Positions 17,119-57,928 are shown, counted from the stretch's first letter. The stretch is 64,000 nt of DNA from Kofleriaceae bacterium (GCA_020633495.1 JACKDR010000001.1:246105-310104), one strand, 5' to 3'. Numbers and translations are program-made. Notes: generated from the letters alone by a model not told the origin.

Positions 17119-17192
17119 CCACCGCGCGGGCACGTTTTCTCGATCGCTGAGCCCGCTTCTGGGTGATCCTGGGCGGGCTCGCGCCGTACCCG

Positions 17193-18595
17193 ATGAAGCC
17201 GTCGTCTCGCATCCGCCCCGCTCGCCCCGCCCGCGCCCACGTCGCGCGCGGACTCGGCGCCGCCGGCGTCGCGGTGGCCGTGGCCTGGGCCGCGGCCGGC
17301 TGCGTCTTCGATCCGACCGGCGCCGCGCTCGGTGGCGGCGTCGGCGACGGCGGCGTCATCGGCGACGATCAGCCGATCCCCGACGGCGCCGTCGATCCGG
17401 TGTGCGGCTGCGCGCTCGGCTGCGGCGACGACGGCGTGACCTGCCTGGCGTTCGATCCGTCGAACCTCGACGATCTCACCGCGCTCGACGGCGTCACCAC
17501 CGACCTCGTGCTCGCCGGCGGCACCTACCTGCTCGACACCAGCGCGCAGCAGCTGGCCGATCCGGACGGCGTGGTCGTCGACGGCCTGCGGTTCGTGCCG
17601 CTCGACGACGGCGGCCCCGGCCTGCTGGTGCTGGCCGTGGCACGGCTCGAGATCGCCGCCGACGCGACCCTGCGCGCGGTCGGCGATCGGGCGCTGCTGC
17701 TGCTCAGCCGCGACCAGATCACCGTCGCCGGCACGATCGACGTCGCCGGCGGCTGCGAGGTCGACCCCGCGACGCCCGGCCGCGACCGGGTGTGGTGCGG
17801 CGGCCCCGGCGCCGGCGACGGCGGCCACCGCGACGGCGGCAACGGCCGCACCGGCGCCACCGGGTGCGCGCCGGCGGCAGCGGCGACGCTGGCTCGACCA
17901 CGCCCGAGCACGGCGGCGGCGGCGGCGGCTTCGGCACCCCCGGCGGCGACGGCGGCGGCGTCGACGGCATCGGCGGCGACAGCGAGGGCGGCGGCCGCTG
18001 CGGCGCCGACACCCTGGAGCCGCTGCAGGGCGGCTCGGGCGGCGGGGTCGCCGGCTACCGCGCCAACAGCGGCGACGACAACCGCACCGCCGGCGGCGGC
18101 GGCGGCGGCGGGCTGCAGCTGACCTCGACGATCGCGATCGTCGTCACCGGCGTGATCGACGCCTCGGGCGAGGGCGGCGCCGGCACCGCGCAGGCGTCGA
18201 CGTACACCCCGCCCGGCACCGACGGCGGCGGCGGCGGCGGCGCCGGCGGCGGCGTCCTACTCGAGGCGCCCGCGGTGACGCTGACCGACGAGGCCATCGT
18301 CGTCGCCAACGGCGGCGGCGGCGGCGCCGGCGTCACGATCGATCGCCACGGCTCGCGCGGCCTGCGCAGCCACATCCGCGCGCCGGGTGGCCTCAACGAC
18401 GACGGCACCGGCGGCGGCCTCGGCGCGGTCGGCGACGGCGTCGACGAGGGCGCGACCGCCGGCGCGGCGCCCGGCGACGGCGGCTCGGGCGGCGGCGGCG
18501 GCGCCGGCCGCGTCGTCGTGCGCGCGGCGGCGCCCACCCTCGGCGGCGTGGTGTCGCCGGCGGCGACCGCGCGCACGCTCGAGCCGCTGCCCTGA
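17193..18595 (+). CDS. Secreted Gly-rich repeat lipoprotein, reading frame interrupted near 17862-17870 (frameshift or sequencing error)
   Basis: Frame of ORF 17163..18122 is protein-like from MKPSSRIRP...AVAWAAAGC (lipobox) to ...DGGNGRTGATG. From ~17865 the coding signal continues in the frame of ORF 17402..18595 (AGGSGDAGSTTPEHGGGGGGFGTPGGDGGG...ANGGGGGAGVTIDRHG...GGSGGGGGAGRVVVRAAAPTLGGV). The upstream part of that second frame is R-rich junk. Confidence 0.4.
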
Positions 18596-18641
18596 CCGGC
18601 GCGGGATTCCCGATCCCGGCGCCGCCGACTACACTGGCGAG

Positions 18642-19466
18642 GTGCCCCCGTCGCTGGTCGACGTCCTGTCCGATCCGCTGCCGTGCGCGTGCGCGTGTCA
18701 CGACACGCTCACCGTCGCGCAGCGCGCGCGCGACGTCGCGGCGATGTACCGCTTCGACGACGCGATGCACGGCTGGGGCTACCAGCCGATCTACGAGGTC
18801 GGCGCCGACCGGCTGTGGCGCGCCGCCCAGGCCCGCAACGACGCCGGCTACCGCGGCGTCGCGGTCCGCGACCACGCGTGCCTGCACCGGCGCCTGGTCG
18901 GGTTCGCGGTCCACGAGCTGATCCACGCGCTGGTCGGCGACCCCACCCAGGCCAACTTCGGCGTCCCGTTCGGCCTGCCCTACGGCGTCCCGGTCGAGAT
19001 CGCGCCCGCCGACGAGAAGGCCTACCTGGCCGAGTTCAACGCCCAGGAGGCGCGCGCGTTCGTCGGTGTCGGCGCCATGGCGCGCGCGCTGTACGACATC
19101 GACTGGGCCGTCTACACCGCGCGCGACGTCGGCACCTACGGCTTCGCCGGCGGCTGGGCCACGGTCGAGGTGCCGCCCGGGTTCCGGCCGGTGCCCCACG
19201 TCGATCGCCAGCACCAGCCCGATCGCTACTACGCGCTGGCGCGCCGGCTCGAGGCCGACGCCGCGGCGTGGTTCACCGAGGCCCGGATCGCCGAGCTGGT
19301 GGCGCGGGTCGAGGCCGCCGAGGCCGCCGGCCGCGCCGCACGGCCGACCCGGCGGCCGCCGCCCGAGCAGCTCGCGGCGCTGCGGCCGCGGGCGCCGTCG
19401 CGCAACGATCCGTGCCCGTGCGGCTCGCGCCTCAAGTACAAGCGCTGCTGCGGCGCGAGCGCCTGA
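18642..19466 (+). CDS. HExxH putative zinc-dependent protein with C-terminal SEC-C metal-binding motif
   Basis: ORF 18387..19466. The upstream part is low-complexity, and a GTG at 18642 (VPPSLVDVL) is the first plausible start (uncertain). Motifs VGFAVHELIHALVGDP and C-terminal NDPCPCGSRLKYKRCCG. 3' end overlaps the convergent rhomboid gene by ~35 bp. Confidence 0.5.
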   Translation: MPPSLVDVLSDPLPCACACHDTLTVAQRARDVAAMYRFDDAMHGWGYQPIYEVGADRLWRAAQARNDAGYRGVAVRDHACLHRRLVGFAVHELIHALVGDPTQANFGVPFGLPYGVPVEIAPADEKAYLAEFNAQEARAFVGVGAMARALYDIDWAVYTARDVGTYGFAGGWATVEVPPGFRPVPHVDRQHQPDRYYALARRLEADAAAWFTEARIAELVARVEAAEAAGRAARPTRRPPPEQLAALRPRAPSRNDPCPCGSRLKYKRCCGASA

Positions 19467-19998
19467 GCGCGGCGGCGACGCCGAAGCCGACGCCGATCGC
19501 CGCGCCCACCGCGTGCGCCAGCGGCGCCTGGCGGATGCCGTGGCCCAGCGCCATCGGGAACGCCGGCGCGCCGGTGATCAGCTCGTAGCCGACCTTGATC
19601 GCGCCGAGCGCGGCCAGCGCCGCGACGTAGGCGCGGCCGCGGCCGCGCCGCGCGCCCAGCTCGTAGGCCAGCGCCGCGGCGAGCAGCGCGTGCGACACGC
19701 CCGACAGGCCGTAGTACGCGGGCGCGCCGTCGACGACGATCACCGCCAGCGTCGGCAGCACCAGCGCCGACGCCAGCAGCGCGACGAAGCCGCGGCGCAG
19801 CGGCTGCTCGTAGGCGACGCCGGCGATCAGCATCAGCGCCAGGTCGCGCACCAGGTGGCCCCAGGTGGCGTGGACCAGCGGCCCGGTGGCCGCGCGCCAC
19901 CACTGCCCGGCGTCGAGGCGCGCGGCGTCGGCGACCAGCCAGCCGGCGAGCGCGCGCGGGCCCGGCGCCGTCGCCTGCGCCGCGGCGGTCGCGACCAC
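19432..19998 (-). CDS. Rhomboid-family intramembrane serine protease, rhombosortase-like (~188 aa)
   Basis: MVATAAAQATAPGPRALAGWLVADAARLDAGQWWRAATGPLVHATWGHLVRDLALMLIAGVAYE...YYGLSGVSHALLAAALAYE...LAHAVGAAIGVGFGV. Small size; GLSG catalytic-Ser motif and AHxxGxxxG His motif match rhomboid TM4/TM6. Sits immediately 3' of, and co-oriented with, a GlyGly-CTERM-like substrate candidate. Confidence 0.55.
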   Translation of the reverse strand: MVATAAAQATAPGPRALAGWLVADAARLDAGQWWRAATGPLVHATWGHLVRDLALMLIAGVAYEQPLRRGFVALLASALVLPTLAVIVVDGAPAYYGLSGVSHALLAAALAYELGARRGRGRAYVAALAALGAIKVGYELITGAPAFPMALGHGIRQAPLAHAVGAAIGVGFGVAAALRRSRRSSACT

Positions 19999-20097
19999 CG
20001 CGGCGACCGCGACCGCCAGCGTCCACGGGTAGTCGACGCCGGCCCACGGCCGGCGCGCGCGCCGCCGCCACCGCCGCGCCCGGTGCGCCCGCCGCGT

Positions 20098-22398
20098 TCA
20101 CGCCGCGCGCCGCCGTCGCAGCTGCCAGACCAGCGGCGCCAGCGCGACCGCCAGCAGCAGCGTCAGCGGATCGGCGTCGCCGCCGCCGCCGCCGCCGCCG
20201 CCCCAGCCGCCGCCGCCGCCCCACGACGAGTGGTGCGACGACGACGAGCTCGACGAGCTCGACGAGCCGCCGTACGCCGGCGCGTCGTCGTCGGCCCCCA
20301 CCGCCGCGGCCAGGTTGACGCCCTCGGGCGCCAGCGCCGGCTGCTCGATGGTCTCGGTGGCGCCGCCCGGCTGCACGACCCGGGTCCGGTCGACCGCGAC
20401 GAACGAGGTGAACTCGGTGACCAGGTGGTAGCGCAGGCCGAGCCCGGTGACCTCCTGCTCGACGTCGGACGGCACCACGCCGTCACGCGCGGCCAGCATC
20501 AGCTCGTCGATGCGGCGCCGCGCCCACGTCGCCGGCACCGCCGGCAGCTCGACGTGGCTGGGCAGTGACACGTCGACCGGGATCGTGACCCGACGGCCGC
20601 CGGTGGTCGCGCTCACGGTCACGGTGGCGCGGCCGGCCTTGCCGTAGCGACCGCTGACGATCAGCGGCTGGCCGGCGTAGACGTCGGGGATCAGCGCCGG
20701 CGTCACGTCGCGGACGTCGAGCCCGTTCCAGTCGACGCTGATGTCGGTGAGGTAGGGGTACGCGGACCGCCGCACCAGCTCGAGCGCGACCGGCTCGGCG
20801 CGCTCGGTCACGCCGAGGTAGCTGGCGTAGCCGCGCCCGGCGAGGCCGAGCTGGTCGAGCAGGTAGCGGTTGGGCGCCGAGCCGATGCCGACCGGGAAGA
20901 TCCGGTTGTGCCCGAGCTTGCCGCGCACCGCCTCGATGATGACGTCGTCGTTGCCGACGTAGCCGTCGCTGATGACGTAGACGACGCGGACGCGATCGCC
21001 GCCCGGCGGGGTCGCCAGCGATCGCAGCATGCCGAGCTCGAGCTCGGTGCCGCCGGTGGCGTCGAGCGCGTGGACGAAGTCGTGGCCGAGGCGGCGGCCG
21101 TCGGCGTCGCCGGCGATCGGGGCCTCGGCGAGCTGCGCGACGCCGTCGGCGAACGCCAGGACGTCGAAGGTGTCGCGATCGGTGAGCGTGCCGAGGACCG
21201 CGTCGGCGACCGCCTTGGCCTGGCGCAGCGGCTCGCCATCCATCGACCCCGAGTGATCGATCAGCAGGATGACCTCGCGCGGCGTGACGTCGCCGGTGTG
21301 GTAGGTGGCCTTGGGCTGGATCGTCAGCACGAAGGTGCCGTCGTCGGCGCCGGCCGCGGCCTCGGCGTGGTCGGCGAGCAGGCCGACCATCGTCTGGCCC
21401 CCGGTCGCGCCGTAGCGGACGATCAGATCGCGGTTCGGGACCTCGTCGGCGTGGGCGAGCGTGACGTGGACGTGGATCGGCGACACCTCGTCGACCTGGA
21501 GGTCGTGCGACGGGCTCTCGACGCCGGTGATCGGCATCGGCGCGGTGATGTCGGCGCTGAAGCTGACCGTGCTGGCGGCGACGGTCGACGCCACGTACGG
21601 GATCGACGTCGTGCCGGCGCGGCCGGTGGCGCCGGCGGCCCGGCCCTCGACGGGGCGGCGCCCGACGCGATCGGCGGGCAGGTAGCGCGGGCCGACCACC
21701 AGCGGGAACACCAGCTGGTAGTGGTCGTCCTTCCAGGTCATCAGCTCGCTGTAGGCGAAGCGGACCTTGATCGTCTCGTGCGGCGCGATGTTGGCGATGC
21801 GCTGGGCGAAGACGTTGGGCTTGTCCTGCTCGACCAGCGCCGCGGTGTGGCCGGCGTCCTTGGCGGCCTGGTAGGTGGCGCGGGCCTGGTCGCGCTGCTG
21901 GATCTCGCCGGCGATGACGCGCTCGCCGATCGTGATCTGGTACGACGACACCGCCGCCTCGTCGCCGAGCGGGAAGACGTAGACCGCCTCGACCGGCCGG
22001 TCGAACGGGTTCTCGAACTCCTGCTCGACGGTGTAGACCGCCATCATGCCGGCGACGTCGGCGTGGACGTCGGTGTGGCGGAGCGGGAACGCGATCACGT
22101 GCCGGACGCGATCGTCGCCGGGCACGCCGACGAGGTCGGGCTCGGCCACGGCATCGGGATCGGCGTCGGCGTCGACGTCGACGTCGACGTCGAGATCCAG
22201 CGCGACCGCGAGCCGCAGCTCGCCGCCGACCGCGGGTAGCTCGTCCATCGCGGCGTAGCCGCCGCTGGACGTGATCTGAGGAGAGACGAGGGAAGAGTCG
22301 GCGCCGGCGCCGCTGGCAGCGTGTAGCTGACACGCGCCGAGCGCGAGCAAGACTCCCCCGATCGCCAGCGTCATCGACGCAGCTGACGTGCGGTGCAT
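20098..22398 (-). CDS. VIT + von Willebrand factor A domain secreted protein with C-terminal GlyGly-CTERM-like sorting tail
   Basis: ORF 20098..22581; start at 22398 (MHRTSAASMTLAIGGVLLALGAC; SD-like GAGGTGG upstream). VIT region (VYVFPLGDEAAVSSYQITIGERVIAGEI...). VWA with MIDAS DxSxS (VILLIDHSGSMDG...TELELGM...YVISDG). C-terminal SSSSSSSSSSHHSSWGGGGGWGGGGGGGGDADPLTLLLAVALAPLVWQLRRRRAA. Confidence 0.8.
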   Translation of the reverse strand: MHRTSAASMTLAIGGVLLALGACQLHAASGAGADSSLVSPQITSSGGYAAMDELPAVGGELRLAVALDLDVDVDVDADADPDAVAEPDLVGVPGDDRVRHVIAFPLRHTDVHADVAGMMAVYTVEQEFENPFDRPVEAVYVFPLGDEAAVSSYQITIGERVIAGEIQQRDQARATYQAAKDAGHTAALVEQDKPNVFAQRIANIAPHETIKVRFAYSELMTWKDDHYQLVFPLVVGPRYLPADRVGRRPVEGRAAGATGRAGTTSIPYVASTVAASTVSFSADITAPMPITGVESPSHDLQVDEVSPIHVHVTLAHADEVPNRDLIVRYGATGGQTMVGLLADHAEAAAGADDGTFVLTIQPKATYHTGDVTPREVILLIDHSGSMDGEPLRQAKAVADAVLGTLTDRDTFDVLAFADGVAQLAEAPIAGDADGRRLGHDFVHALDATGGTELELGMLRSLATPPGGDRVRVVYVISDGYVGNDDVIIEAVRGKLGHNRIFPVGIGSAPNRYLLDQLGLAGRGYASYLGVTERAEPVALELVRRSAYPYLTDISVDWNGLDVRDVTPALIPDVYAGQPLIVSGRYGKAGRATVTVSATTGGRRVTIPVDVSLPSHVELPAVPATWARRRIDELMLAARDGVVPSDVEQEVTGLGLRYHLVTEFTSFVAVDRTRVVQPGGATETIEQPALAPEGVNLAAAVGADDDAPAYGGSSSSSSSSSSHHSSWGGGGGWGGGGGGGGDADPLTLLLAVALAPLVWQLRRRRAA

Positions 22399-22608
22399 TT
22401 CCACCTCGCGTGTTGGTCGCCGGGTGCCTACGCAACGCGCGTGCCCGATCGCCAAGTCGCGACAAAGACGTCCGACCATTCGACCAGTGGGTCGGCACGT
22501 ACGCACCAGGTGTCGAAGTCCTGGCACCCGCCGCGCGCGATCTCGCGTGGTTGCCCCGCGCGGGGTGCGTCGACGGTTCACCGTGGCGCGCGCGCCACGC
22601 GTCGGGCG

Positions 22609-23353
22609 CTACGCGGTCTCGCGCTGGAACGTTCGGGTCGCGACCGCGAGCCCGACGATCGCCAGCAAGGTCGCCGAGATCAGGCCGGCGAGCAGCGACG
22701 TCGTGCCGTAGTCGCCGCGGAACGCGGCGCGCGCGCCGTCGACGACGTGGCTGAACGGGTTGGCGCGCGACAGCCGGTACAGCCACCGCGGCGCCAGCGA
22801 CATCGGCAGCAGGATCCCCGACAGCAGCATCGCCGGTACCGCGACCATGTTGAGCAGCGGCGCCAGCGCGTCCTCGCTCTTGAGCCACATGCCGGCGGCG
22901 TACGACAGCGACGACAGCGCGACCCCCAGCAGCCCGACGATCGCGACCGTGATCAGCGCGCCGACCAGCGGCACGCGCAGGCCGAACGCGACCGCCACCG
23001 CGGTCAGCAGCGCGGCCTGGACCAGCAGCACGAGGGTGTCGCGCAGGACCCGACCGAGCAGCAGCCCGAGCCGGCTCGCCGGCGTCACCCGCATGCGCTC
23101 GACGACGCCGTAGCGGACCTCGGCGATCAGCCCGAAGCCGACGAACATGCTGCCGAACATGCCGAGCTGGATCAGCAGCCCGGGCACGAACACCGACCAG
23201 GCGTCGCCCTCGGGGAAGCCCGGGGTGTCGGTGATGCGATCGAGCAGCGGCGCGAACAGCGCCAGGTACAGGAGCGGCTGGACCAGCGCGATCACGAACC
23301 ACACCGGCTCGCGGATCAGCAGCCGCAGCTGGTAGCGGAAGATCGTGCCGGCG

Positions 23354-23370
<17 letters not shown>
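22609..23370 (-). CDS. ABC-2 type transporter permease
   Basis: 253 aa, six hydrophobic segments. MSVLRDAGTIFRYQLRLLIREPVWFVIALVQPLLYLALFAPLL. Start overlaps the ATPase stop by 17 nt. Confidence 0.8.
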
Positions 23371-24349
<979 letters not shown>

Positions 24350-24435
24350 GGTCGCGAGCGACTATTCTACTTGGACTATTCCAAGTCAAGCGGGTTCCGC
24401 CGGCGGCCGCGGCTTGCCGGCCGCCGTGGCCGCGA

Positions 24436-25245
24436 TCACCGCGCGGGGCGGCGCTTCGCCTTCGGCTTGGTCGGCGCCTTCGGCTTGGTCGGCGCCTTCG
24501 GCTTGGTCGGCGCCTTCGGCTTGGTCGGCGCCTTCGGCTTCGCGAGCGCCTTCGGCTTCGCGGGCGCCTTCGCCTTCGCCCTGCCCTTGTCACGAGTCGG
24601 CGCGGCGGCGGCCCCGGCCGGCGCCGTCGCCGACCCGCCCGGGCGGTTGATCACCGCGCGCCGACCCGCCACCGGGTGCCACGGCGGATCGTCGGCGGTG
24701 ACGTAGCCGCCGCCCTCGAGCCGGCCGATCAGCGCCTGGCCCCACGCGATCTCGGCGGCGAGCCGCGCCTCCATCAGCCACAGCATCTCCTTGACGTGCT
24801 CCGGCGAGGTGTCGGGCTGGAAGTGCTCGATCGCGAACCGCATGTGCTCCTGCATGCCGCCGATCTGGGTGATGCGGTGGCGCAGCGCCGCGATCAGCTC
24901 GTCGCGCCGCATCGCCGACATCATGCTGAGCGCCGGCATCAGCGGATCGAGCGGCTGGCCCACGGTCCACCAGGTCTCGCGCAGCAGCTGGCCGAACTCC
25001 TGCTCGCCCTCGGCGGTGAGCTGGTAGCTGGTGCGCTCGGGCCGGCCGCCGACCTGCGCGGTGCCGACGATCTCGATCAGGCCGTCGCGGGTCAGGCTCT
25101 TGAGCGCGTTGTAGATCGAGCCCGGTGACACGTTGCCCCACTCGTCGGCACGCCAGGACAGGAGCTCGCGGCGCACGTCGTAGCCGTGCACCGGCTGGAA
25201 CATGCGCACGACCCCGAGGACCAGCAGGCGGGTGGACGACGACAC
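24436..25245 (-). CDS. PadR-family transcriptional regulator with histone-H1-like KPKAPT repeat tail
   Basis: N-terminal winged helix LLVLGVVRMFQPVHGYDVRRELLSW...SIYNALKSLTRDGLIE (PadR). C-terminal AKAKAPAKPKALAKPKAPTKPKAPTKPKAPTKPKAPTKPKAKRRPAR, encoded by 18-bp tandem DNA repeats. Confidence 0.8.
   Translation of the reverse strand: MSSSTRLLVLGVVRMFQPVHGYDVRRELLSWRADEWGNVSPGSIYNALKSLTRDGLIEIVGTAQVGGRPERTSYQLTAEGEQEFGQLLRETWWTVGQPLDPLMPALSMMSAMRRDELIAALRHRITQIGGMQEHMRFAIEHFQPDTSPEHVKEMLWLMEARLAAEIAWGQALIGRLEGGGYVTADDPPWHPVAGRRAVINRPGGSATAPAGAAAAPTRDKGRAKAKAPAKPKALAKPKAPTKPKAPTKPKAPTKPKAPTKPKAKRRPAR
24458..24565. repeat. 18-bp tandem repeat (gccttcggcttggtcggc x4 perfect, plus degenerate copies) encoding the KPKAPT tail of PadR
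   Basis: Perfect units at 24458..24475, 24476..24493, 24494..24511 and 24512..24529, then diverged copies. Confidence 0.8.
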
Positions 25246-55313: not shown

Positions 55314-56378
55314 CTACGGCGCCGCGGTGATGGCCTCGTGCAGCGCCACCAGGCGCCACTCGTCGCCGTCGCGCAGGTAGACGTAGAACACCCGCTCGGG
55401 CAGCGGCGTGTCGCGGTCGGCGGTGACGTCGACGTTGACGCACACCCAGCCGAGGCGACCGTCGCCGGTCAGCGCGGCCCGCGGCTCGCCGCGCACGAGG
55501 GCGGCCGGCGGCTCCGCCGGCGGCGGCGCGGCGGCGGCGCCAGCCTCGTCGTCGGCGTCGGCATCGTCGCCGCCCTTCTTCTTGGCCTTCTTCTTCTTGG
55601 CCTTCTTCTTCTCGGCCTGCTTCTGCTTCGCCTTGGCGTCGGCCCGGGCCTTCTTGAGCTCCTTCTTCCACGCCTTGTAGACGGCGTCGACCCCGACCGT
55701 CGGCCGGGTCGCGCCGCGCGCGATCACCATGACGTCGTCGCGCTCGGCGAGCTGATCGATGAGGTCGTCGCGATCGACGGTCGCCTCCTCGACGAGCGCC
55801 ACCACCGGCTGGCTCGCCGGGGTCGCGCCGCCCGGCACGGCGGGCAGGACCGCGAGCTTGCCGTCGCCCTGCAGCTTCGCGGCGCGCTTGGCGGTGACCG
55901 GGCGCCCGAGCTGGACCGCGCGGATCACCCACAGGCCGTCGCTGTCGACCAGCACGAAGGTCGCCAGGTAGCTCTGGCCGTCGAAGTCGACCTGATCGGT
56001 GGCCCACGCCGAGTGGCCTCCCGGCGCCGCCGCCACGGTCAGGGCCCGCGACTTCAGCCGGTGCTTCTTGCCGCCGCCGGCCTCGAGCGCGTCGGCCAGC
56101 GCGAGCAGCGCGGCGCTGCGCTCGGCCCACACCTGCGGTCCGGGACCGGCGACGAAGACGTCGGGCGCCAGCAGCGACAGCAGGCCGTCGTGGCTGCCCA
56201 GCTCCAGCGATCGGTAGGCCTCCTCGATGACGTCGCGGGCGTTGCCCGCGGCCTCCTCGACGTCGACCGGCGCCGGCCTGCGCACCTTGGCCCCGCCGCC
56301 GCCGCCGCACGCCGTCACCGCCACCAGGATCAGCACCGAGGCGGCGACGCCGCCCCACACGCGTCGCCGAGGCTTCAT
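55314..56378 (-). CDS. Hypothetical lipoprotein with Lys-rich (AKKKKAKKK) segment; co-translated with upstream MYXO-CTERM metalloprotein
   Basis: ATG at 56378 overlaps the upstream stop (ATGA). MKPRRRVWGGVAASVLILVAVTAC lipobox. KKARADAKAKQKQAEKKKAKKKKAKKKGGDDADADDE. The longer listed ORF (to 57668) is a shadow. Confidence 0.55.
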   Translation of the reverse strand: MKPRRRVWGGVAASVLILVAVTACGGGGGAKVRRPAPVDVEEAAGNARDVIEEAYRSLELGSHDGLLSLLAPDVFVAGPGPQVWAERSAALLALADALEAGGGKKHRLKSRALTVAAAPGGHSAWATDQVDFDGQSYLATFVLVDSDGLWVIRAVQLGRPVTAKRAAKLQGDGKLAVLPAVPGGATPASQPVVALVEEATVDRDDLIDQLAERDDVMVIARGATRPTVGVDAVYKAWKKELKKARADAKAKQKQAEKKKAKKKKAKKKGGDDADADDEAGAAAAPPPAEPPAALVRGEPRAALTGDGRLGWVCVNVDVTADRDTPLPERVFYVYLRDGDEWRLVALHEAITAAP

Positions 56379-57928
56379 CCGCCCATGGTCGCCCGGGCCG
56401 CCGGACACCGCAAGCGGCGCCGCCGCAGGCTCGCGAGCACGCCCAGCGCCAGCAGCGCCGACGTGCCGGCGCCGGCGGCGCCGCCGCCGGTCGAGCAGCA
56501 GCCGCCGTCGTCGATGACCGGCGGATCGGGGTCGGGATCGGGATCGGGATCCGGATCCGGATCCGGATCCGGCGCCGGGCCCTGCCGGTAGCGGACGCCG
56601 AAGGTCTCGTCGACGTCGCGGCTGGTCGAGGTCACGGCGATCGACAGCCACGCCGTCGGCTCGTCGGCGGGCAACGTCACCGCGATCGCGCCGGCGCCGT
56701 CGGTCAGCGCGACGCCGTCGGCGCCGTCGCGCACCAGCGTGGCGTGGCCGACGGCGGCGCCGCCGCGGCTGCCCACCGCGTCGACCTCGACGCCGAGATC
56801 GAGGACGCCGTCGGCCGGGCGCGCCAGCTCGATCGTGACGTAGCCGAAGGCGTGCGGCGCCCGGTCGGTCAGCGTCGCCCAGCCGGTGGTGCCGGCGGCG
56901 CCGACCCGCGCCGCCACCGGGTCGTGGCCGGGGTACGCCGCGACGTAGGCGTCGATCCACGGCGCGACGGCGTCGCCGTGCAGGCCGTCGAGCCGGACCG
57001 CGCGGGCGGCGAAGTCGCCGAACGCGTCGGCGAGGTCGACGTCTCCGGCGACCGCGTCGAGGACGTCGAGCGGATCGTCGCCGGGGCTCGCGGTCGACCA
57101 CGACCGCGGCACCAGCGTCGGATCGGCGGCGGTCTCGGTGACGAAGCGCGGGAACAGCGACGCGCCGTACTGGTGGACGCCGGCCACCGGGTCGGCGCCG
57201 AACGGATCGGCGTGGAGGAACACCGCCAGCTCCGCGGTCAGCGCGTAGGCGCCGACGAACGCGAACGCGACGTCGAGGTCGGGCAACAGCTCCTGCGACG
57301 CCCACTCGGCGGTGGCCTCGTAGTACCAGAACGCGGCGTCCTCGAAGTAGACCGGGAAGGTGAACTGGAAGTCGTGGTACAGCTCGTGCGAGGTGACGTG
57401 GCGGATCGTGGCGGCGTCGCCGCCGGCGCCGACCAGGTTCTTGCTCATGACGAAGAACGGATAGCCGTCGTCGTCGAGGTAGGCGTAGCCGCCGTCGTAG
57501 TCGATCGCCGGCTCGTCGGTGGGCCCGGCGACGTAGGCGTTGATCTTGTAGGTGTCGGCGCCGATCGGCGGGGCCTGGCCGAGGCCGTCGACGTAGAAGA
57601 CGTAGGCCTCCTCGAGCGCGTCGAGGACCTGCTGCGCGTCGGCGTCGCTGAGCGCCGCGCTCTGCCACTTGACCGCGAAGTTCGCCGACTCGCGGACCTG
57701 GAAGGTCCCGGGGAAGCCCTCGCGGACCAGCTTCGTCGCGGTGGGGCCGAGCGCGACCCGGGGCGCGCGCCGCGCCGTGCGCAGCGCCGGCAGCCGCGCC
57801 GGGGTGCCGCAGCGGATCGTCGGCGGCGCCGTCGGCGCGGCCGCGGCGGTGGCGGCGACGCCGGTGGTGGTGAGCAGCGCGACGCCGGCGGCGAGCGCGA
57901 TCGAGGCGGTGGTGGGGCGGTGGGACAT
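56375..57928 (-). CDS. Secreted HExxH zinc-metallopeptidase-like protein with C-terminal MYXO-CTERM sorting signal
   Basis: ATG at 57928 (MSHRPTTASIALAAGVALLTTTGVAATAAAA signal). HVTSHELYHDFQ. PD-repeat linker (PDPDPDPDPDPDPD, 6-bp DNA repeats). C-terminal VIDDGGCCSTGGGAAGAGTSALLALGVLASLRRRRL (Gly-Cys-Cys motif, TM, Arg cluster). Confidence 0.65.
   Translation of the reverse strand: MSHRPTTASIALAAGVALLTTTGVAATAAAAPTAPPTIRCGTPARLPALRTARRAPRVALGPTATKLVREGFPGTFQVRESANFAVKWQSAALSDADAQQVLDALEEAYVFYVDGLGQAPPIGADTYKINAYVAGPTDEPAIDYDGGYAYLDDDGYPFFVMSKNLVGAGGDAATIRHVTSHELYHDFQFTFPVYFEDAAFWYYEATAEWASQELLPDLDVAFAFVGAYALTAELAVFLHADPFGADPVAGVHQYGASLFPRFVTETAADPTLVPRSWSTASPGDDPLDVLDAVAGDVDLADAFGDFAARAVRLDGLHGDAVAPWIDAYVAAYPGHDPVAARVGAAGTTGWATLTDRAPHAFGYVTIELARPADGVLDLGVEVDAVGSRGGAAVGHATLVRDGADGVALTDGAGAIAVTLPADEPTAWLSIAVTSTSRDVDETFGVRYRQGPAPDPDPDPDPDPDPDPDPPVIDDGGCCSTGGGAAGAGTSALLALGVLASLRRRRLRCPAARATMGG
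56524..56571. repeat. 6-bp tandem repeat (gggatc/ggatcc) encoding the (PD)n linker of the MYXO-CTERM metalloprotein
   Basis: gggatcgggatcgggatccggatccggatccggatcc read directly from the sequence. Confidence 0.8.

Follow-up and report, generated by a model that had tools for sequence, protein, structure and literature searches.

We analysed a 64,000-nucleotide (nt) stretch of the genome of a soil myxobacterium (Kofleriaceae bacterium, GCA_020633495.1 JACKDR010000001.1:246105-310104; G+C about 75 %), referred to throughout as the window, on whose minus strand a gene for a protein with VIT and vWA domains, here called the cargo, is followed directly by a gene for a rhomboid protease. We regard it as quite likely that the two genes form a dedicated two-gene rhombosortase-type sorting cassette. 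This reading is carried by the domain identities of the cargo, the family of the protease, the conservation of the cargo tail, the adjacency of the genes and the link between the type of tail and the enzyme encoded next to it.

In the pathway that we infer, Sec would export the adhesin-like VIT-vWA cargo as a lipoprotein (lipobox Cys23), and the C-terminal helix would at first keep the cargo in the inner membrane, the Arg cluster facing the cytoplasm. The rhomboid, an intramembrane serine protease (Ser99/His162), would read the Gly-run/DxD-P-x-T signature together with the Pro-containing helix and would cut at or just past the Gly run, thereby removing the helix. By analogy with RssP and VesB of Vibrio cholerae, the new C-terminus would probably be joined to a glycerophosphoethanolamine-type lipid, after which the cargo would reach the cell surface, probably through a type II secretion system (T2SS). 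In relatives, overlap of the cargo stop codon with the rhomboid start codon would couple the translation of the two genes. The features of the cassette are as follows (positions in the window).

20098..22398, minus strand: cargo gene, 766 amino acids (aa) from ATG, stop TGA at 20100..20098 (open reading frame (ORF), Pfam, TIGR03788)
22330..22398, minus strand: signal peptide with lipobox MHRTSAASMTLAIGGVLLALGA-C23 (read from sequence)
21751..22083, minus strand: VIT domain, residues 106-216 (PF08487, 117.2 bits)
20821..21276, minus strand: vWA domain, residues 375-526 (PF13768 / PF00092 / PF13519)
20221..20265, minus strand: Ser-rich low-complexity spacer S10-HH-SS-W, residues 712-726 (read from sequence)
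20161..20220, minus strand: tail signature, Gly run followed by D741-A-D743-P-L-T746, predicted cleavage region
20119..20166, minus strand: single hydrophobic helix L745..L760 with conserved intramembrane P756
20107..20118, minus strand: Arg cluster RRRR, cytoplasmic side (position frequencies in 94 tails)
19999..20097, minus strand: 'intergenic' 99 nt encoding TRRAHRARRWRRRARRPWAGVDYPWTLAVAVAAV in the common cargo/rhomboid frame (sequence, junction comparison)
19432..19998, minus strand: rhombosortase as annotated, 188 aa (TIGR03902, 87.3 bits against a cut-off of 84)
19702..19704, minus strand: catalytic S99 (GLSG)
19690..19692, minus strand: H103 of SGVSH
19513..19515, minus strand: catalytic H162 (A-H162-A-V-G-A-A-I-G)

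The cargo and its C-terminal tail

The longest ORF for the cargo comprises 827 aa and begins at GTG 22581, and within it the VWA_3, VWA and VWA_2 families of Pfam score 32-37 bits. The N-terminus is a lipoprotein-type signal peptide (LLALGA-C23) that was missing from the initial annotation; the lipobox Cys is found in 107 of the 131 complete family members using a strict regular expression and in approximately 124 of them by eye. A protein collection search identified more than 120 homologs at 50-61 % identity. The body of the cargo is homologous to TIGR03788 ('marine proteobacterial sortase target'), aligning with positions 3-596 of the 629 in the profile (429.8 bits), although the protein does not reach the cut-off of 551.65 and is not a member, and it ends without the LPXTG of that family, as the initial annotation had supposed. 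At 100 % identity the window cargo has no match in a collection of 5.8 billion proteins (best match 60-61 %), unlike the neighbouring rhomboid, which does occur in that collection; the cargo gene may have been classed as a pseudogene, or its product left out of the deposited set.

The C-terminal tail is tripartite, consisting of a Gly run (G733-G740), one hydrophobic helix (L745-L760) and four arginines (R761-R764), with the protein ending two residues on and a signature motif free of Cys. The first description of the locus, a 766-aa VIT and vWA protein ending in a Gly run, a single hydrophobic helix and RRRR, was accurate, coordinates included, and the 55-aa tail quoted with it matches the sequence exactly. 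Ser/Gly-rich spacers of varying length precede the sorting signal in all homologs. Within the family, 94 of 121 members share the tail GGG-D-[V/A]-D-[P/L/W]-x-T-LLLALAL-x-P-LA-x-x-L-R-R-x-R. In these 94 tails +5 is Thr in 99 %, +14 is Pro in 97 %, +20, +21 and +23 are Arg in 91-96 %, and the unconstrained positions -7, -6, -4 and -3 are Gly in 82-96 %, while +3 is occupied by P, L or W and a Cys lies near the signature motif in just two; the G-G-D-x-D core itself was imposed by the anchoring pattern, and its conservation is not an independent result. Conserved residues inside the helix would be expected of a segment that is read by an intramembrane enzyme. Helix-destabilising residues, a small P1 and a hydrophobic P2', which we take to be traits of rhomboid substrates, are compatible with cleavage between the final Gly and the first Asp. 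Judged by its sequence, the tail is a distinct, tightly conserved flavour of its own. A scan of the window ORFs with a strict tripartite-tail pattern returned the cargo as the sole match, the pattern being too strict for the MYXO-CTERM protein of the window (see below), so that the scan is not a census.

The rhomboid protease

The 188-aa protein scores 41.5 bits against Pfam Rhomboid. Against the rhombosortase model TIGR03902 (cut-off 84) the annotated form scores 87.3 bits and a form with an N-terminal extension 87.1 bits, whereas the GlpG models TIGR04239 and NF008155 give 20.8 bits (cut-off 250) and 14.3 bits (cut-off 335). Three features have been described for rhombosortases: SGxxH, in which His replaces Tyr205 of GlpG, WRxxS/T and AHxxGxxxG, with the His four residues past the catalytic Ser present in 'virtually all rhombosortases' (Haft & Varghese, PMC3237569). 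All three occur in the window rhomboid, as S99-G-V-S-H103, W-R-A-A-T and A-H162-A-V-G-A-A-I-G. Across an alignment of 23 homologs neither S99 (GxSG, TM4) nor H162 (AHxxGxxxG, TM6) varies, and H103 is nearly invariant (at least 90 % of the clade). The GLSG and AHxxGxxxG motifs noted in the initial annotation are therefore present with invariant catalytic residues, and its assignment of the enzyme to the rhombosortases rather than to GlpG-type rhomboids is borne out by the model scores and by the SGxxH motif.

An NCBI protein named 'rhombosortase [Kofleriaceae bacterium]' is 100 % identical to the window rhomboid. The scores of relatives on TIGR03902 range from 60.8 to 88.2 bits and so fall on both sides of the cut-off, which explains why sources name some of them 'rhombosortase' and others just 'rhomboid family'. 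At residues 48-52 (window 19846-19860, minus strand) the sequence HLVRD aligns with HILFN of Haemophilus influenzae GlpG; Arg51 and Asp52 are present in at least 90 % of the clade, and Asn is retained in more distant relatives.

Synteny and alternative partner genes

Sixteen related Myxococcota loci, excluding the window, have this cargo immediately 5′ of this rhomboid, mostly with an overlap of stop and start codons; this recurrence and the conservation of the tail signature go beyond chance, and the expectation that the two genes would be syntenic in related genomes was thus confirmed. A scan of reference genomes using the rhombosortase alignment, which relied on clade-specific peptide patterns, identified 14 loci, all in Myxococcota metagenome-assembled genomes (MAGs; Kofleriaceae and Haliangium-like). 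Twelve of these have a cargo homolog immediately upstream in the same orientation; in one of the remaining two the contig is cut inside the rhomboid and in the other (L018) there is a run of N marking a scaffold gap. Metagenome loci pair the cargo with the rhomboid likewise, the flanking genes varying from locus to locus. L018, which looks like a rhomboid without cargo, was rejected as a counter-example: the N run lies directly upstream with VIT-like N-terminal sequence before it, an assembly artefact. At a further locus, L025, no cargo is seen within the 387 nt available upstream, and it may be a real exception.

Some cargo homologs, approximately 50-55 % identical in the body, bear another tail, for example GGWGGGG-RSLGDWWILVFFGIGALWLIVRR. 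The cargo of L019, with the tail GGWGGGG..GDWWILVFFGIGALWLIVRR, is paired with a partner of 245 aa, and in all five of the other-tail loci examined an overlapping gene of 244-263 aa comes next and there is no rhomboid. The partner genes with coordinates are the following.

L019:2904-3641: partner gene
L020:6142-6888: partner gene
L021:6115-6906: partner gene
L022:2238-2972: partner gene

The four available partner sequences form one family, anchored in the membrane at the N-terminus, in which His128 (H-x-VVYY) and Cys158 (LD[S/A]CWS) do not vary; no match to the partner was found in Pfam, NCBIfam or the sequences of the PDB. In the non-window loci 16 DxD tails occur with a rhomboid and five other tails with the partner, with no exceptions (Fisher p = 4.9e-5, indicative only as the loci are related). 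Each tail type is tied to its neighbouring gene, and the 244-263-aa partner is a candidate undescribed sorting enzyme, at which the sister group as a whole hints. The partner gene is often followed by a DUF6748 gene.

Natural fusions of cargo and protease

In a Myxococcales MAG (JAYVSF010000683.1, L017:5568-8465) a single ORF of 965 aa contains, in order, a lipobox, the VIT and vWA domains, the tail, a basic linker and a rhombosortase. Five fusions of 922-958 aa (P0217-P0221), identified among NCBI, ENA and Logan assemblies by a search with this ORF, share only 65-72 % identity with one another, which indicates that the fusion is real and old. The fusions retain C23, G-D-x-D-P-x-T, G-L-S846-G and A-H909, while the Gly run is down to 1-3 residues, and the TIGR03902 scores of the protease part range from 60.8 to 78.5 bits. 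They are rare, with one representative among the best 150 matches at the 50 % clustering level. The window pair shares 49.8 % and 54 % identity with the fusion clade, the lowest values of the loci compared. We found no report of natural rhomboid-cargo fusions in the literature searched. Such single-chain proteins could provide a native enzyme-substrate complex for structural work, which to our knowledge the rhomboid field lacks. The fusions and the sister group with the other tail are more interesting than the window cassette itself, and, were the window pair a single translational unit (see below), the Kofleriaceae VIT-vWA family would more broadly represent a set of natural modular sorting experiments, with a separate rhombosortase, a fused one, or another tail and a His/Cys partner.

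The gene junction

The two genes had been described as separated by 100 bp. The length was right (99 nt, 20097..19999), but the segment is not simply intergenic: in the rhomboid frame it encodes ...RRPWAGVDYPWTLAVAVAAV, which includes the first helix conserved in homologs (the DYPWTLAV… part). The annotated 188-aa product is without most of helix 1 of the six-helix rhomboid core, a helix that lies upstream in frame with no canonical start. The size of 188 aa in the initial annotation is thus correct as annotated and probably an under-call of the real protein. An exhaustive search with the extended rhomboid as query returned matches most of which start aligning at VDYPWT, and the alignment to the GlpG model also extends into the 99-nt extension. 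One reading frame runs from the cargo through 33 linker codons into the rhomboid, with the TGA as its sole interruption, and no ATG, GTG or TTG is present in the rhomboid frame between the cargo TGA and GTG 19998. A GTG at 20101..20099 overlaps the cargo TGA, but in the other frame.

The cargo of relatives invariably has TGA as its stop, which the start codon of the rhomboid, GTG or ATG in a different frame, overlaps (GTGA or TGATG). Three relatives have CTG at the start position (CTGA; L023:3950-4005, L024:270-325 and L026:1355-1420), and gene callers consequently took an internal GTG, giving truncated calls of 187-192 aa. The stop/start overlaps suggest translational coupling that tolerates a non-canonical start.

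The ancestral start in the window may have been GTG 20101, followed by a 1-nt frame change near 20040 that is either an assembly error or a real lesion. This raises the alternative, which we consider unlikely, that a rhombosortase-type cassette is defective in the window genome through a 5′ lesion of the protease gene (a shifted frame or a nonsense mutation), with the cargo left uncleaved or degraded, or that it only appears so owing to an assembly indel. Consistent with such a defect, a conserved helix is found with no canonical start codon before it; the GTG lies over the cargo TGA as in L005, L010 and L013, although in the other frame; that frame reads MNAAGAPGAAV..., resembling homolog leaders of the type MDAAPGPRV...; a 1-nt change near 20040 would restore a standard gene; and a cargo identical to that of the window is missing from the same 5.8-billion-protein collection that holds the rhomboid. 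Both ORFs are otherwise intact, however, with third-position GC of 0.965 and 0.984, typical of expressed genes, and all catalytic and signature residues are retained. The CTG starts of L023, L024 and L026 argue that non-canonical initiation or coupling is tolerated, and other long genes of the window look unbroken. A truncated 188-aa protein may also be made, which would probably be inactive.

The shared frame may instead be used via read-through of the TGA or by initiation at ACG or CTG. The cargo and the protease would then be, at least in part, one polypeptide produced by read-through, or would have been fused until a recent nonsense change, with cleavage in cis as proposed for the natural fusions. 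We think this quite improbable, although the continuous frame through the 33 linker codons and the five diverged natural fusions, with a similar basic linker and intact catalytic residues, are in keeping with it. The topology would also fit, with the tail helix running out-to-in, a cytoplasmic basic linker, and the first rhomboid helix running in-to-out. Third-position GC in the linker is 21/21 in the shared frame, and it remains 0.90-1.00 in each 60-nt window of that frame across the cargo stop; by hand count it is 20/21 in the frame of GTG 20101, so that the other frame is equally GC-rich at third positions over the first 21 codons, and codon-position GC was dropped as a frame test for the junction because both frames are equally high. 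Further points against a single polypeptide are the absence of any special relationship between the window pair and the fusion clade, the rarity of the fusions, and the prior of one in three for a coincidence of frame. In bacteria, a TGA stop with A as the next base is not known to be especially leaky. If the pair were nonetheless a single translational unit, it would be a single-turnover, self-sorting surface protein that cleaves its own attached substrate helix in cis.

Relation to known sorting systems

The two-gene rhombosortase-type cassette resembles several described systems. In V. cholerae, RssP cuts VesB after GG, with a glycerophosphoethanolamine-type modification and T2SS-dependent delivery to the surface. 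The window pair shares with this system (TIGR03902/TIGR03501) the SGxxH rhomboid subfamily and a Cys-free Gly-rich motif followed by a helix and a basic cluster at the extreme C-terminus and, as in other rhombosortase/GlyGly-CTERM systems, a lone target adjoins the enzyme. It differs in that the tail fails TIGR03501, an acidic DxD-P-x-T parts the Gly run from the helix, the helix Pro is near-invariant, the enzyme clade lies astride the TIGR03902 cut-off, Asp occupies the position of the GlpG Asn, and the pairing in Myxococcota is one-to-one as opposed to many-to-one in gamma-proteobacteria.

VIT/vWA homologs bear GlyGly-CTERM, LPXTG or PEP-CTERM signals depending on lineage (Haft & Varghese 2011, PMC3237569). 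According to the same study, in genomes with a single target that target lies within one gene of the rhombosortase in 16 of 21 cases, and several of the single targets are annotated as VIT/vWA proteins, including those of Rhodopirellula baltica, Syntrophobacter fumaroxidans, Desulfuromonas acetoxidans and Neptuniibacter; in two Anaeromyxobacter genomes a lone GlyGly-CTERM protein occurs beside numerous MYXO-CTERM proteins. Since adjacent rhombosortase and VIT/vWA pairs, and GlyGly-CTERM beside MYXO-CTERM in Myxococcales, were thus published in 2011, the cassette is of a known kind, and the earlier suggestion of a distinct cassette has to be given up as far as novelty in kind is concerned. The pairs described in 2011, compared here by published description, have the same cargo architecture and the same logic of one target in an adjacent gene, and their tails were accepted as GlyGly-CTERM; the Kofleriaceae clade falls outside that genome set. 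What differs from the known kind is the tail signature, the lipoprotein N-terminus, the borderline enzyme score and the junction. The cassette extends the system described in 2011 and validated in Vibrio to Kofleriaceae and related Myxococcota, which is unsurprising alone. As a one-enzyme, one-substrate pair it represents a minimal system in which to ask whether a rhombosortase is a true transpeptidase and what is read inside the membrane.

Other systems are related in part. The TIGR03788 target with its dedicated Gram-negative sortase TIGR03784 has a homologous VIT-vWA body and the enzyme gene next door but uses an LPXTG signal and a cysteine transpeptidase, and the window cargo is without the last ~33 profile positions. 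MYXO-CTERM and myxosortase (MrtX) share with the cassette the phylum, the tripartite plan of the tail and probable T2SS-dependent surface delivery, whereas their invariant Cys and CPBP-family glutamic protease fit neither the window tail nor its neighbour. The rhombotarget lipoprotein family TIGR04179 is, by its name, a curated precedent for an N-terminal lipoprotein as rhombosortase target, although it is an unrelated small family (259 positions) that the window cargo does not match.

Several observations count against a dedicated rhombosortase-type cassette in the window. The tail gives no match at E ≤ 10 to TIGR03501 (cut-off 15.5 bits), and a DADP-to-Ser variant still gives none; nine homolog tails were likewise without a match at E ≤ 10, while synthetic canonical-style tails used as a positive control score 15.9-34 bits, so that the model is detectable. 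The four residues D-A-D-P, conserved as D-[VA]-D-[PLW], stand between the last Gly and the hydrophobic stretch, contrary to the rule that in a GlyGly-CTERM the helix follows the signature motif directly (Haft 2023 preprint). The protease exceeds the TIGR03902 cut-off by a thin margin and close relatives fall below it (60.8-79.6 bits); the position of the GlpG oxyanion-hole Asn is Asp (HLVRD against HILFN); and cleavage by members of the clade is predicted only by analogy with V. cholerae RssP. As annotated the protease is without its first helix, for which there is no canonical start upstream, and the state of the cassette in the window genome is therefore uncertain; the protease may be inactive there, or the assembly may carry an indel. 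Adjacency, finally, is the sole basis for calling the pair 'dedicated'.

Given the absence of a match despite a working control, HMM (hidden Markov model) membership of the tail in GlyGly-CTERM was rejected and the likeness kept at the level of architecture. Every curated CTERM model fails on the tail, an outcome that the initial annotation had itself named as refuting, and the tail qualifies as GlyGly-CTERM by architecture and adjacency only. The GlyGly-CTERM HMM is not exhaustive, and tails beside a rhombosortase have been accepted on architecture alone (PMC3237569). As the curated model misses GGG-DxD-P-x-T…P…RRxR, rhombosortase targets appear to be under-annotated in Myxococcota.

These same results bear on a further explanation, that the tail does no more than anchor the C-terminus in the membrane, or that it is a degenerate MYXO-CTERM processed by myxosortase, with the rhomboid an unrelated housekeeper. 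The failure on the GlyGly-CTERM HMM is in its favour, as are the use of MYXO-CTERM by the genome and the fact that TIGR03901 is the sole CTERM model touched by the tail (16.7 bits, E = 0.007, profile positions 11-33 of 34). That score is below the cut-off of 20, however, and the match is limited to the helix and Arg half of MYXO-CTERM; the invariant Cys of MYXO-CTERM is missing from the window tail and nearly so from the family. The adjacency, the codon overlap, the fusions and the swap of tail together with enzyme all link the tail to the rhomboid, which itself carries rhombosortase-specific residues. We consider this explanation very improbable.

Neighbouring genes

The gene order on the minus strand, from ORF calls, is PadR, ABC ATPase, ABC-2 permease, cargo and rhomboid. 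A gap of 210 nt, with a weak terminator-like hairpin at 22487..22472, separates the permease from the cargo. The surrounding genes are given below.

25245..24436, minus strand: PadR regulator (NCBIfam/Pfam families)
24349..23354, minus strand: DrrA-like ABC ATPase
23370..22609, minus strand: ABC-2 permease (DrrB-type exporter)
22609..25245, minus strand: PadR and DrrA/DrrB-type ABC exporter as a whole, outside the cassette (absent from related loci)
17163-18595, plus strand: Gly-rich ORF with long GGGGG runs, downstream of the rhomboid and convergent
18387-19466, plus strand: 359-aa protein ending in a SEC-C metal-binding motif, convergent with the rhomboid
56375-57928, minus strand: MYXO-CTERM protein with the tail …DDGGCCSTGGG…LLALGVLASLRRRR (TIGR03901, 28.2 bits, cut-off 20)

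Searches by tblastn with the PadR, permease, ATPase and SEC-C proteins detected no PadR, permease or SEC-C near related loci, and the ATPase gave just generic ABC ATPase matches (32-41 % identity), downstream in some loci. Since PadR and the permease are missing from the related loci, their membership of the cassette, which had been proposed in the initial annotation, is unsupported and was rejected. Neither the Gly-rich ORF nor the SEC-C gene is kept beside the cassette in relatives.

The MYXO-CTERM protein reported elsewhere in the window passes TIGR03901, and the window thus contains two different C-terminal sorting signals, that of the cargo and that at 56375-57928. The SEC-C ORF and the 3′ end of the rhomboid overlap by approximately 35 nt on opposite strands. 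Unusually for a PadR regulator, the PadR protein is extended at its C-terminus (window 24436-24650, minus strand) by KPKAPT repeats in tandem (…PTKPKAPTKPKAPTKPKAPTKPKAKRRPAR).

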